Assembly: GCA_043816005.1 (NCBI GenBank)
Contig: JBDRIM010000073.1
Coordinates: forward strand, 1 to 32,000
Direction of reading: 5' to 3'
Source: Candidatus Micrarchaeota archaeon
Lineage (GTDB): Archaea; Micrarchaeota; Micrarchaeia; Anstonellales; Bilamarchaeaceae
Length of the DNA: 32,000 nucleotides
Part shown: piece by piece, positions 1,427 to 14,141 of the stretch
Numbering within the stretch: position 1 is the stretch's first letter
How the letters are laid out: each line of letters opens with the position of its first letter
Translations under genes and position numbers: made by a program
The notes under the pieces: model-generated
What the model saw: the letters and a program-made list of their open reading frames with translations, nothing else
What the model was told of the DNA's origin: nothing
Database searches by the model: none

Positions 1427-2431
1427 TTAAATTTTACACTGTCTCACAATAACCCCCGCTTCTTTCAATAATTTGAGTGGTGCTTCACCAAGTGGATATT
1501 CTACATTGTAAATGACTTCTGAAATACCAGCATTCAAAATCATTTTTGTGCAGATTAAACATGGTGAAAACGTAGTGTAAATTATTGTTCCTTTAATTGA
1601 TATTCCATGATAGGATGCCTGTACAATTGCATTTTCTTCACCATGAGAACAATAACACTCTTCTAAATTTTTACCGCTCTCGGCAAATGAATTGCATCTC
1701 GGACAACCACCTTCATTACAATTTCTTACTCCTCGTGGTGTCCCATTATATCCAGTTGAAATAATTCGTTTATCCTTGACAATTACAGCAGCCACTTTTC
1801 GTTTAATACAATTGCTTCTTGATGCAACAACCTTAGCAATCCTCATAAAATATTCATCCCAACTCGGACGTTCAAATCTGAATTTTTCTGATATCTCACC
1901 AAGCGTCTGATCCACTACATCATAAAGATGCTGTAAATCTCCGTCGTTTGTTATTTTTTTATCTGCTTTACCTACTGCGTCCATTATGGATTGGTGGGTT
2001 GCCTTATCGCTTTTCTTTTCAATATCTTCTATTCTGACAAACGCTTCAAATGTTACTGGATCTCCCTCGCGTTTTCGTACTTTCATTCTTCTGAAACGAA
2101 CATCCGGAGATGCAGTAATATAAAATAAAAAGAAACCTGGCTGTGATTTTAATTCATCAACCTCAGCAGCATTTCTTATAGAATCTACGACGTAATTTTT
2201 GTCATTTTCTGCTTTCAGAAGGATTTTCTTTGCCAAGATGCTAGGACCGAACTGTTCTCGCATCTTATTGCCTTTTTTAATAAGTGTTTCACGTGTGATT
2301 TCGATTCCTTCGCCACTTAATTCCTCTCTAATTACATCAGAAAGAGAAAGATAATAAAATCCTTTTTTTCTCAAATACTCGCAAATAGTACTTTTTCCAG
2401 CGCAATTCTCACCAGTTAATCCAATAATCAT
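1427..2431 (-). CDS. fusion protein: N-terminal P-loop nucleotide/dNMP-kinase-like domain + C-terminal dCMP (cytidine/deoxycytidylate) deaminase domain
   Basis: Walker A GLTGENCAGKST at the N-terminus. The C-terminal half has the zinc-binding deaminase motifs CSHGEENA (H-x-E) and SPCLICTKM (PCxxC), with ComEB-like context (VAAVIVKDKRIISTGYNGTPRG). Confidence 0.85.
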   Translation of the reverse strand: MIIGLTGENCAGKSTICEYLRKKGFYYLSLSDVIREELSGEGIEITRETLIKKGNKMREQFGPSILAKKILLKAENDKNYVVDSIRNAAEVDELKSQPGFFLFYITASPDVRFRRMKVRKREGDPVTFEAFVRIEDIEKKSDKATHQSIMDAVGKADKKITNDGDLQHLYDVVDQTLGEISEKFRFERPSWDEYFMRIAKVVASRSNCIKRKVAAVIVKDKRIISTGYNGTPRGVRNCNEGGCPRCNSFAESGKNLEECYCSHGEENAIVQASYHGISIKGTIIYTTFSPCLICTKMILNAGISEVIYNVEYPLGEAPLKLLKEAGVIVRQCKI

Positions 2432-6936: not shown

Positions 6937-7173
6937 ATGAATGATACAATTGCATTTTTGATAAAAAAACTTTCTAGTAAAAGTGTTATGGAAAGGAAGG
7001 AAGCAATAAAAGAACTTAAGCACCATGTCCAGAGTTCAGGAAATCACCTGGCAAGATTATCATTAGATTATATCTCAGAACATGATCCTTCTTATACAGT
7101 AAGAAATCTGGCAAAACAGGCACTATCCTCTCAAATAAAACAACCTGTATGGGAACGTACTCATCTCTTCTGA
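6937..7173 (+). CDS. small HEAT/PBS-lyase-like repeat protein
   Basis: 78 aa, starting 9 nt after the preceding stop. ERKEAIKELK and DPSYTVRNLAKQAL resemble HEAT_PBS repeats (D..x.VR..A..AL). Confidence 0.5.
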   Translation: MNDTIAFLIKKLSSKSVMERKEAIKELKHHVQSSGNHLARLSLDYISEHDPSYTVRNLAKQALSSQIKQPVWERTHLF

Positions 7174-7183
7174 CTAAAAGATA

Positions 7184-7193
7184 TTATATAAAA
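7184..7193 (+). promoter_or_regulatory. TATA-box-like element upstream of tRNA-Val
   Basis: ttatataaaa lies about 27-37 nt upstream of the predicted tRNA 5-prime end at 7221, the expected archaeal promoter spacing. Confidence 0.45.
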
Positions 7194-7220
7194 TCTATTG
7201 GAACATCATTCTGCTACTAT

Positions 7221-7559
7221 GGGCTCGTAGTCGATTCCGACTTTTTGGAAAAAAGTCGGCCAAAAACTTTTTGGTTAAACGACAATGGTAAGACGCCTGC
7301 TTGACATTTTCACCGTTTAGAAAACAACAATGTCGTGATACGACATTGTGCCCATAAAAACGAAAAATCGTTTTTATAGAGGGGTGAAACCAAAACGGTC
7401 TGTAAATGGCCGATCAAAAACATTTGGAAAGAGAGTTTTGATGCACATAATTGTTCGATCTCTCGAACAATTTGCGTCTTGAACGATTCATCGTTCAAGT
7501 ACGACTTTTTCCAAAAGTTGCAATGCAGGAGATACGCGGTCCGATTCCGCGCGGGCCCA
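7221..7559 (+). tRNA. tRNA-Val(GAC) with two insertions (about 7235-7283 in the D loop; 7307-7523 at position 37/38)
   Basis: Joining the exons by hand gives a 73-nt cloverleaf. Acceptor GGGCTCG/CGGGCCC, D stem GTCG/AGAC with G18 G19, anticodon stem CCTGC/GCAGG, loop TTGACAT. T stem CGCGG/CCGCG, discriminator A73. A T-run follows. The T loop TCCGATT is atypical at position 55. Confidence 0.65.
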
Positions 7560-7563
7560 AATC

Positions 7564-7575
7564 TTTTTTTATTTT
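7564..7575 (+). terminator. oligo-T terminator after the tRNA
   Basis: tttttttatttt begins 5 nt after the discriminator base. Archaeal RNA polymerase terminates at T-runs. Confidence 0.45.
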
Positions 7576-8485
7576 ATAAATACTCAAATCCTCCCCTTCT
7601 AAATCCACTCTCAATAATTCCCATGAGCATTTTATCACTAAAAGTTGCATCTCCATAGTGTGGAAGATGATCCTTTCTCAAAGGAATTCTTCTTGCTCCT
7701 TCTCCTTCCAGGTATACTGCTGTTAAGGCAGGTATTGAAGGCGGAAATACTGATACTGGTACTGTGATTGTACTAAGTGGTCTTCCTAAACCTTCACGGT
7801 TAACATCTTGCACTGCTTCTTTCCATTCTTGTTGAGAAAACCCAGCCAAAAGTGAATGCATAAAATCTTCATCATTTGCTGGTATTCCAGTTGGGCTTAA
7901 TTTTACAATACGCTCTGCAAGTTCTCTTGTTGGTGGTCGTACAAAATCAACAAGCAAAACTGCACCGCTTGGTGAAACATGCCATAGCATATTCATAAGT
8001 AATCTTCTCAATGCTTCTGGATCCTGAAGGTGGTGTGCTAAAAATAATGAAATACTCGCTGCATTTTTGTTTGCTGTAGATAACTTTACAATTGTAGCAT
8101 CACCATGAACGATAGTTATCATACTGTCTCTATGTGCATCTACAATGTTTTTTCGTGCTTTTGCAATCATTTCTGGTCCTAGTTCTATTGCCGTGATATC
8201 TAAATTTCCCATTGTTCGTGATAACATAATATCTAAATTAGCCGGACCACAACCAAAGTCAGCTACAAACCCTCCACCATCCTTTGGCAGGAGAGCCGAA
8301 AGCATGCGTATAAAAGTCCAATATGTTCTTCTAATAGTTCTGCGTCCTGCTTCGTCAAAAGCATCTACACTTGTAGTACTTCTCATAACTGGTTCTGGTT
8401 CAATAATACGTCTGAATTCCTTACAGTCGCGTACTGCTGTTTTGTAAGCATGTGCTAATCTAATAGCTTGAATCGGATTTGTCAT
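7574..8485 (-). CDS. class I SAM-dependent methyltransferase
   Basis: Motif I VADFGCGPANLD with downstream acidic and hydrophobic strands typical of the Rossmann methyltransferase fold. ATG at 8485 is preceded by GGGTGGGT (SD-like). The track begins at TTG 8497. Confidence 0.8.
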   Translation of the reverse strand: MTNPIQAIRLAHAYKTAVRDCKEFRRIIEPEPVMRSTTSVDAFDEAGRRTIRRTYWTFIRMLSALLPKDGGGFVADFGCGPANLDIMLSRTMGNLDITAIELGPEMIAKARKNIVDAHRDSMITIVHGDATIVKLSTANKNAASISLFLAHHLQDPEALRRLLMNMLWHVSPSGAVLLVDFVRPPTRELAERIVKLSPTGIPANDEDFMHSLLAGFSQQEWKEAVQDVNREGLGRPLSTITVPVSVFPPSIPALTAVYLEGEGARRIPLRKDHLPHYGDATFSDKMLMGIIESGFRRGGFEYL

Positions 8486-13773: not shown

Positions 13774-14141
13774 TTTTTTCACCTGAAAGCAGCAGAGCCG
13801 CGTTAGCCGTTCATTCCAACAAATGGACGTTTCATCCCCTCAAAAAATGGGCCAAACCCATTTTCATTAAAGAAATACGTCCATTGTAGATCGCATGTGC
13901 TACAATTGTACCGCACATGGTAAATACATTTAGTCAATGTATTTATACTTTTCCCTCGAGAATGTGCCATTTGTTCTTTTTTTAGTCATTTTATGTCCTC
14001 ATTTTTTCGTCGTAAAACATCAAGTATTTAAATCATCGAAGGTGCCATTACTTACTCTCGTAATTGTTTCGTTAATTTTTTCGCATTGCGAAAAAATGAG
14101 AAACTGGGAGAAAGCGACCAAAATGATAAAAAGGTGAAACT

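Follow-up and report, generated by a model that had tools for sequence, protein, structure and literature searches.

In ARMAN-2 (Candidatus Micrarchaeum acidiphilum), 56% of the transfer RNA (tRNA) genes are disrupted, and the epsilon2 endonuclease cleaves both strict and relaxed splice motifs (PMC3239211, PMC12397907). Here we describe a gene from the same phylum, a tRNA-Val(GAC) gene interrupted twice, once within the D loop and once at the canonical position 37/38, which lies at positions 7221-7559 (+) of a 32-kb stretch of Candidatus Micrarchaeota DNA (contig JBDRIM010000073.1, positions 1 to 32,000; hereafter the window). ARMAN-2 and the window have in common canonical together with non-canonical introns, two of them in one gene, and relaxed motifs (PMC3239211, PMC3488258, PMC12397907). 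However, the ARMAN-2 substrates that were tested had introns of 25 and 13 nucleotides (nt), whereas the window introns measure 50 and 217 nt, and both introns of the ARMAN-2 two-intron gene sit in the T loop (53/54 and 59/60), whereas those of the window sit in the D loop (15/16) and at 37/38.

For tRNA genes of Thermoproteales, up to three introns at non-canonical sites have been reported (Sugahara 2008, Fujishima 2010, in the summaries of PMC4033280 and PMC8450103), and the likeness of intron sequences at different sites was interpreted as a sign that introns had transposed (Fujishima 2010, via PMC4033280). Going by these summaries, the window gene resembles the Thermoproteales genes in having multiple introns with similar sequence across sites (39/43 and 29/30 identical nt between D-loop and anticodon-loop modules, see below), but it belongs to a different phylum, and its paralogous introns share a single gene and lengthen to 140-217 nt through nested perfect hairpins. 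In Haloferax volcanii, the introns of tRNA-Trp (103 nt) and tRNA-Met (75 nt) are cut out at strict motifs and have been found in circular form (PMC7714728). Both systems have a long canonical anticodon-loop intron; its removal by an endonuclease and circularisation by a ligase are known in H. volcanii and proposed for the window, whose intron is about twice as long as the 103-nt tRNA-Trp intron and has a relaxed instead of a strict motif. Asgard archaea (Atabeyarchaeia/Freyarchaeia), a different lineage, have intron-rich tRNA sets, some of them missed by tRNAscan-SE, and the accessible part of that report describes neither intron lengths nor a modular hairpin architecture (PMC11291895). Multi-intron tRNA genes are already well known from Thermoproteales (PMC4033280, PMC8450103), ARMAN-2 (PMC3239211) and Asgard archaea (PMC11291895). 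What is notable here is the length of 217 nt, the series of 27-217 nt at one site, the modular growth by perfect hairpins and the invisibility of the gene to ARAGORN and to the Rfam model. We found no statement on the maximum length of archaeal tRNA introns in the literature searched.

We consider it highly probable (roughly 85%), judging by sequence and comparison, that window 7221-7559 is a functional single-transcript tRNA-Val(GAC) gene with two endonuclease-type introns, both derived from one hairpin module and removed by ordinary archaeal splicing. In a bulge-helix-bulge motif the endonuclease cuts between the second and the third bulge nucleotide, and this cut rule was used for the ends of the D-loop intron in the following exon and intron assignment:

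7221-7235, + strand: exon 1, with the acceptor 5' strand, U8 A9, the D-stem 5' strand G10-G13, A14 and U15; its end is set by the cut rule.
7236-7285, + strand: D-loop intron, 50 nt, at tRNA position 15/16 by the cut rule.
7286-7306, + strand: exon 2, with the remaining D loop UGGUA, the D-stem 3' strand AGAC, G26, the anticodon stem 5' strand, and U32 U33 GAC A37.
7307-7523, + strand: anticodon-loop intron, 217 nt, at the canonical position 37/38.
7524-7559, + strand: exon 3, with U38, the anticodon stem 3' strand, the variable loop AGAUA, the T arm (loop UCCGAUU), the acceptor 3' strand and the discriminator A73.

The first-pass annotation had placed the gene in three segments (7221-7234, 7284-7306 and 7524-7559), which are all present at these coordinates and join in silico to GGGCTCGTAGTCGAAATGGTAAGACGCCTGCTTGACATGCAGGAGATACGCGGTCCGATTCCGCGCGGGCCCA, a 73-mer that ARAGORN called tRNA-Val(GAC). 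The 72-mer that results from the exons listed above was also typed as tRNA-Val(gac). The spliced sequence keeps U8, A14, G18 G19, U33, A58, the discriminator A73 and the anticodon GAC, and the acceptor stem, U8/A9, D stem, anticodon arm, T arm and A73 all read as that annotation had described them. The D stem (GUCG/AGAC) consists of three Watson-Crick pairs plus G13.A22, and CCA is not encoded at the 3' end of exon 3. The 339-nt precursor had a minimum free energy (MFE) of -123.2 kcal/mol (z = -8.1 vs shuffles), with the acceptor, anticodon and T helices present in the fold.

Three flanking features accompany the gene, of which the TATA-like element and the T run had also been proposed before and were seen again here; the functions given for these two are deduced from their sequence:

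6937-7173, + strand: conserved gene of 78 amino acids (aa) directly upstream of the tRNA, the synteny anchor for the ortholog search.
7184-7198, + strand: putative TATA-like promoter block TTATATAAAATCTAT, about 30 nt 5' of the mature end.
7564-7570, + strand: run of seven T, a likely archaeal oligo-T terminator.

The block ATATAAAATCTAT is conserved ahead of the orthologs in L002, L010 and L011, and runs of five to six T follow the orthologs in L002 and L010. A split or permuted tRNA gene was also considered and excluded: the three exons are colinear within 339 nt, with one promoter block and one T run.

Orthologs were sought first by scanning collections of genomes and metagenomes for the last 22 nt of exon 3, and then by tracing the conserved 78-aa gene that precedes the tRNA across other assemblies; the lineages recovered are phylogenetically related. 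Counting the window, we found ten distinct tRNA-Val(GAC) genes: two were intronless, two had only a D-loop intron and six carried both introns at the same two sites. Among the intron-bearing genes, the D-loop introns ranged from 27 to 152 nt and the anticodon-loop introns from 27 to 217 nt:

L003/L004/L008: D intron 0, anticodon intron 0; D arm GTCG AATGGTA AGAC.
L005/L007: D intron 0, anticodon intron 0; D arm GTCG AATGGTA AGAC.
L015/L016: D intron 54 nt, anticodon intron 0.
L013/L014: D intron 34 nt, anticodon intron 0.
L001: D intron 27 nt, anticodon intron 27 nt.
L009: D intron 75 nt, anticodon intron 33 nt.
L011/L012: D intron 140 nt, anticodon intron 57 nt.
L010: D intron 152 nt, anticodon intron 41 nt; tRNA cassette inverted relative to the flanking genes.
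L002: D intron 53 nt, anticodon intron 86 nt; Ca. Bilamarchaeum dharawalense LFW-283_2 (PMC8561730).
Window: D intron 50 nt, anticodon intron 217 nt.

The 22-nt 3' end was identical in eight further true tRNA-Val loci (L001-L005, L007-L009), while a ninth match to the pattern, L006, was discarded as a chance occurrence inside a bacterial protein gene. The cloverleaf covaried across the orthologs: 95.2% of the cells were paired and six pairs had changed on both sides, which none of 500 shuffles equalled, and slid-register controls gave only 29-59% paired cells. The mature sequences of the window, L002 and L010 are 100% identical, their introns differ greatly and the adjacent proteins are 67-74% identical. 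Identical exons next to proteins of this divergence indicate purifying selection on the exons and argue against a pseudogene. Intronless, one-intron and two-intron orthologs, together with the exon covariation, thus back the core proposal of the first-pass annotation, a tRNA-Val(GAC) gene in which one intron splits the D loop and another, 217 nt long, lies at 37/38.

U55 is near-universal in the T loops of tRNAs, and the T loop of the window gene (UCCGAUU, 7540-7546) has C55. This residue, noted earlier as a caveat, is indeed present, but it is not a defect of this copy, since many orthologs carry it. We found C55 in the window, L001-L005, L009 and L010, and U55 in L011/12, L015/16 and L013; the true frequency of C55 cannot be taken from this set, as the search pattern selected for it. 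The T loops without C55 read UUCGAUU, UUCAAUU or UUCGAUC (L011 2028-2034; L015 1967-1973; L013 3126-3132). Because the C55 copies include intronless genes that score above the Rfam tRNA threshold, C55 is a trait of the lineage and gives no sign of decay.

Some of the ortholog loci had further peculiarities. At L010 6387-6651, the whole tRNA-Val cassette, including the TATA block, is inverted between the 78-aa gene (upstream) and a methyltransferase gene (downstream). A LAGLIDADG-domain gene call, which may be dubious, overlaps the tRNA-Val ortholog region at L013 3073-3249 (-), and the 3' part of an archaeal 23S ribosomal RNA (rRNA) gene lies at L004 7255-8000 (-), 3 kb from the intronless tRNA-Val gene. 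The near-identical assemblies L011 (1991-2047) and L012 (574-630) differ by two substitutions only, both in the first-hairpin stem of the anticodon intron; the two variants, CCGCCTTGTGGTAACAGGCGG and CCGCCTTTTGGTAAAAGGCGG, are compensatory only with a one-base slip of the stem and were not counted as evidence.

Standard tRNA finders did not report the gene. On the genomic window ARAGORN found nothing at the locus, with or without a search for introns of up to 400 nt, and at lowered thresholds it returned only spurious Lys, Arg and Ser models there. An Rfam scan of the genomic locus gave nothing at the gathering threshold and, at E<=10, only noise far below threshold (U5, a CRISPR repeat and psbT-asRNA). 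The intronless orthologs, in turn, scored 64.1 and 65.2 bits against the Rfam tRNA model RF00005 (gathering score 29), while the intron-bearing L001 and L015, searched with the same model among four loci, were not detected, and ARAGORN found a tRNA-Val in none of six intron-bearing loci. Even two 27-nt introns or a single D-loop intron are enough for a gene to be overlooked (L001 119-245; L015 1860-1986; L002 3409-3619). For Ca. Bilamarchaeum dharawalense LFW-283_2, the host of the two-intron ortholog L002, the published genome has 20 of 21 tRNA types (PMC8561730).

The D-loop intron holds two hairpins, one of 10 base pairs (bp) that is perfect (7237-7259) and one formed by CCAAAAA/UUUUUGG (7260-7274). 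Its terminal CGAC (7280-7283) pairs with G10-G13 (7230-7233), which gives a central helix of 4 bp with two 3-nt bulges (AU|U and AA|U), and these pairs have a probability of 0.70-0.72 in the window ensemble. The intron occupies the same site in 8/8 intron-bearing lineages, and in seven of them the four nt of the D-stem 5' strand (G10-N13) are all paired (4/4) with the final four nt of the insertion, just ahead of AAYGG: GUCG/CGAC in the window, L002 and L015, GUCG/UGAC in L010, L011 and L009, and GUCU/GGAC in L013. The exception is L001, with 3/4 paired (GUGG/CGAC). The central helix thus covaries between G-C, G.U and U.G, and the cut rule applied to it yields an intron of 7236-7285 and a mature U15. 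In the enzyme-RNA structure from ARMAN-2, cleavage falls between A14 and A15, and the third bulged nucleotide was given a proposed role (PMC12397907).

Intact D loops in the orthologs measure 7 nt (or 8 nt), from which it follows that the window insertion is 50 nt long and the mature tRNA 72 nt. The first-pass annotation had given 49 nt for the insertion and 73 nt for the product; the orthologs (the intronless ones have a 7-nt D loop) and the bulge-helix-bulge rule correct these figures to 50 and 72 nt, and the 72-nt product keeps its tRNA-Val(GAC) call. Its caveat that the boundary of the D insertion could slide was apt, as it is this boundary that moved, and the exon boundaries are now defined to within 2 nt. 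The Levitt tertiary pair of a tRNA joins positions 15 and 48. The residue that the cut rule leaves at position 15 is U where position 48 is a purine (A in the window, L002, L010 and L011; G in L015) and A where it is a pyrimidine (U in L009 and L001; C in L013, L004 and L005), so that purine and pyrimidine match in 10/10 lineages, an independent line of support for the intron ends set by the cut rule.

For both introns, unrestricted enumeration of helix-bulge combinations in such AT-rich precursors is too permissive, and the tests were limited to product-preserving cuts. At the anticodon loop, the cuts 7306|7307 and 7523|7524 are the sole register that preserves the product (loop UUGACAU) with the 5-bp anticodon stem intact as its outer helix; the bulges are CA|U and AA|U, the inner helix has 3 bp and the central helix (7301-7304/7518-7521) is paired 3/4. 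This register recurs in all six two-intron lineages, as computed for L002, L010, L009 and L001 and read from the sequence for L011, in which the central helix is paired 4/4 (UUGA/UCAA). The ortholog comparison thus agrees with the 217-nt insertion at 37/38 put forward earlier. The splice helix proposed with it (7302-7305/7517-7520) would place the cuts one nt off on each side and produce a 9-nt anticodon loop, and gives way to the register of the orthologs; the likeness to a relaxed bulge-helix-bulge motif holds, in the new register, but the motif is weak in this gene. Both junction motifs would qualify as relaxed only, the kind that is cut by epsilon2 and (alpha-beta)2 enzymes (PMC3239211), and this would fit a broad-specificity enzyme such as the ARMAN-2 epsilon2.

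In the predicted fold, the 217-nt intron consists of two domains with a middle hairpin (7396-7400/7408-7412) between them. In domain 1, a closing stem (7308-7314/7383-7389) surrounds the perfect hairpins 7327-7349 and 7354-7377, and in domain 2 a long-range helix (7419-7433/7505-7519) surrounds the perfect hairpins 7449-7472 and 7478-7499. These four perfect 10-bp hairpins compare with a mean of 0.06 (maximum 1 in 300) in dinucleotide shuffles, and the intron has an MFE of -75.3 kcal/mol (z = -8.4). In the whole window, 5/14 perfect hairpins with a stem of >= 8 bp fall within the 339-nt locus. No second copy of any substantial 11-mer of the locus was found elsewhere in the 32-kb window.

We found that the same module opens both introns in most lineages, 1-3 nt after the 5' cut. 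It consists of a hairpin with a 5-7-bp clamp and U4-5/A4-6, followed by CCAAAAAC, the 5' arm of the CCAAAAA/UUUUUGG helix, and its clamp covaries with zero mismatches (CCGAC/GUCGG, UUACC/GGUAA, GCACC/GGUGC, CCGCC/GGCGG). The D and anticodon introns of L002 are identical at 39/43 nt, the D intron of L015 and the anticodon intron of L012 at 29/30 nt, and the anticodon intron of L002 and the D intron of L010 agree at 28/37 nt in their 3' ends. The module was confined to tRNA-Val introns in the 116 kb of fetched DNA that were searched. In the long intron of the window its stem is kept as 7308-7314/7383-7389 and followed by CCAAAAC, and the loop has grown to 68 nt with two perfect hairpins; D introns of L011 (140 nt) and L010 (152 nt) show growth of the same kind. 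The four inserted hairpins share a common apical core, (A/T)CGA-loop-TCG(T/A), and we take them for probable duplicates of the module that diverged through compensatory changes. The appearance of the 217-nt intron suggests that a short ancestor was enlarged by nested perfect hairpins.

A further proposal goes beyond this, and we regard it as unlikely. It holds that the introns are copies of one mobile hairpin-module element (the GC-clamped U5/A5 hairpin plus the CCAAAAAC/GUUUUUGG helix) that would move between endonuclease sites in Micrarchaeota tRNA-Val and grow by nested insertion or duplication of perfect palindromes, and that the excised forms of 140-217 nt would persist as highly stable RNA circles that have their own function (protein or RNA sponge, regulator) or a stage towards a split tRNA gene.

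The tRNA-Trp intron of H. volcanii carries a C/D-box guide RNA. Reading the long intron of the window for such a guide revealed no RUGAUGA/CUGA pair, the nearest sequence being UGAUGC at 7437-7442, and no Rfam family matched this intron. A coding role was rejected as well: the only open reading frame (ORF), a 62-aa antisense frame with a TTG start (7310-7498, -), had no Pfam match and no counterpart in the relatives with short introns, and was treated as spurious.

For the processing of the transcript we propose the following course. Transcription would start from the TATA block at about -30 and run to the T7 run, and each intron would fold on itself in its own hairpins and leave the splice junctions free. 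Pairing of 7230-7233 with 7280-7283 would form the 4-bp helix between two 3-nt bulges, and the anticodon stem, lengthened by the weak 3-bp helix, would present the 37/38 site. An endonuclease, expected to be of a broad-specificity form as in ARMAN-2, would cut after the second bulge nucleotide at 7235|7236, 7285|7286, 7306|7307 and 7523|7524. An RtcB-type ligase would then join the three exons to the 72-nt tRNA and circularise the 50-nt and 217-nt introns, and G10-G13 would re-pair with A22-C25 once the first intron is gone. Both introns would derive from the one module (GC-clamped U5/A5 hairpin, then the CCAAAAAC/GUUUUUGG helix), the 217-nt form being this module plus nested and tandem perfect hairpins.

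Several observations weigh against this account. The central helix of the window at 37/38 is made of U.G, G.U and A-U pairs only, with pair probabilities near 0, and the MFE fold pairs 7301-7303 with 7521-7523 instead, leaving U7524 as a 1-nt bulge. The D-intron motif is of the relaxed type, with no flanking outer or inner helix, and the correlation between positions 15 and 48 may reflect few independent events, the lineages being related. Four runs of five T on the sense strand of the introns (7241-7245, 7266-7270, 7371-7375 and 7506-7510) might end transcription early. Finally, none of the ORFs in the 32-kb window showed a tRNA splicing endonuclease domain.

Two of the alternatives that we weighed keep a spliced tRNA gene and change the position of the cuts. 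With gene and splicing machinery unchanged, the D intron could be taken out colinearly, as 7234-7283 or 7235-7284; exon 1 would then end at 7233 or 7234, and the D loop would be AAUGGUA with A15 and not AUUGGUA with U15. Such a deletion reproduces exactly the D arm of the intronless orthologs, GTCG AATGGTA AGAC, and ARAGORN accepts its product as well as that of the cut rule. However, no 4-bp helix with 3-nt bulges fits the colinear cuts, while the 15/16 register is perfect and conserved, and A15 throughout would make the 15:48 pair A.A in four lineages and A.G in one, where the cut-rule residue tracks position 48 in all ten; we therefore hold colinear removal to be doubtful, though a serious candidate. 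Placing the long intron at 34/35 (7304-7520), with tRNA-Cys(GCA) as the product, deserves next to no credence. ARAGORN with intron search (-i) does call tRNA-Cys(gca) with a 217-nt intron at 34/35 when the D intron is taken out, and the repeats TTGAC.../...TTGCA formally allow both readings, but the intronless and the D-intron-only orthologs read TTGACG/TTGACA, with the anticodon GAC, and no helix-bulge register was found by hand for cuts at 7303/7304 and 7520/7521. A73 is typical of tRNA-Val and tRNA-Cys normally has U73, so the discriminator also fits Val and not Cys.

The other two alternatives concern the nature of the locus. That it is a decaying tRNA pseudogene, invaded by palindromic or mobile DNA and not spliced to a working tRNA, would be in line with the silence of the standard finders on genomic DNA, the weak splice motif at the long intron, the internal T5 runs and C55 in place of U55. 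We consider it quite improbable, given that the window, L002 and L010 have exons of 100% identity at a neighbour-protein identity of only 67-74%, that the promoter and terminator are conserved, that insertions sit at precisely the same two sites in six lineages, that the exon helices covary and that C55 also occurs in intronless orthologs which score 64-65 bits as tRNA. The size range of the smallest group I introns includes about 217 nt, and the highly structured insertion could on this ground be a group I intron that splices itself. Such introns are found in the anticodon loops of bacterial tRNAs. They are also present in rRNA genes of Micrarchaeota (PMC6125680). Nevertheless, Intron_gpI gave no match in 7100-7700, even at E<=10 with permissive filters, the only boundary by which the anticodon loop is restored makes the terminal intron nucleotide A, not G, and the orthologous introns at this site, with 27-86 nt, could not hold a ribozyme core and have the 5' and 3' modules of the window intron, all of which makes a group I intron extremely improbable.

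The host is an archaeon of Candidatus Micrarchaeota (DPANN). The proteins on either side of the tRNA match, at 100% identity, Candidatus Micrarchaeota archaeon entries (ABID61_05625, ABID61_05630, MFH1521100.1) of an NCBI metagenome-assembled genome, located on a contig of 49 kb, the window encodes aIF5B, the archaeal PheRS alpha subunit (PheS-alpha), FtsZ, CTP synthase and PCNA, and its G+C content is 35-39% over most of its length. Upstream of ftsZ, an intergenic stretch (13776-14141) holds three further perfect hairpins (13844-13864, 13921-13945 and 14075-14097), with no Rfam match and no tRNA-like T arm. We also observed a kinase-like/dCMP-deaminase fusion protein at 1427-2431 (-), whose gene is syntenic in L010; it matches an anti-phage dCTP deaminase model weakly (128 bits, cutoff 400) and also matches ComEB-type deaminases.

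With lengths of 0/27/33/41/57/86/217 nt at the anticodon site and 0/27/34/50/53/54/75/140/152 nt in the D loop, these tRNA-Val genes offer an unusually clear view of intron gain, copying between sites and expansion in one gene family. The 217-nt intron with its weak motif is a demanding natural substrate for probing the reach of endonuclease specificity in Micrarchaeota. Since the finders overlook intron-bearing genes, the tRNA complements of Micrarchaeota metagenome-assembled genomes, and the completeness estimates for them, are likely understated.

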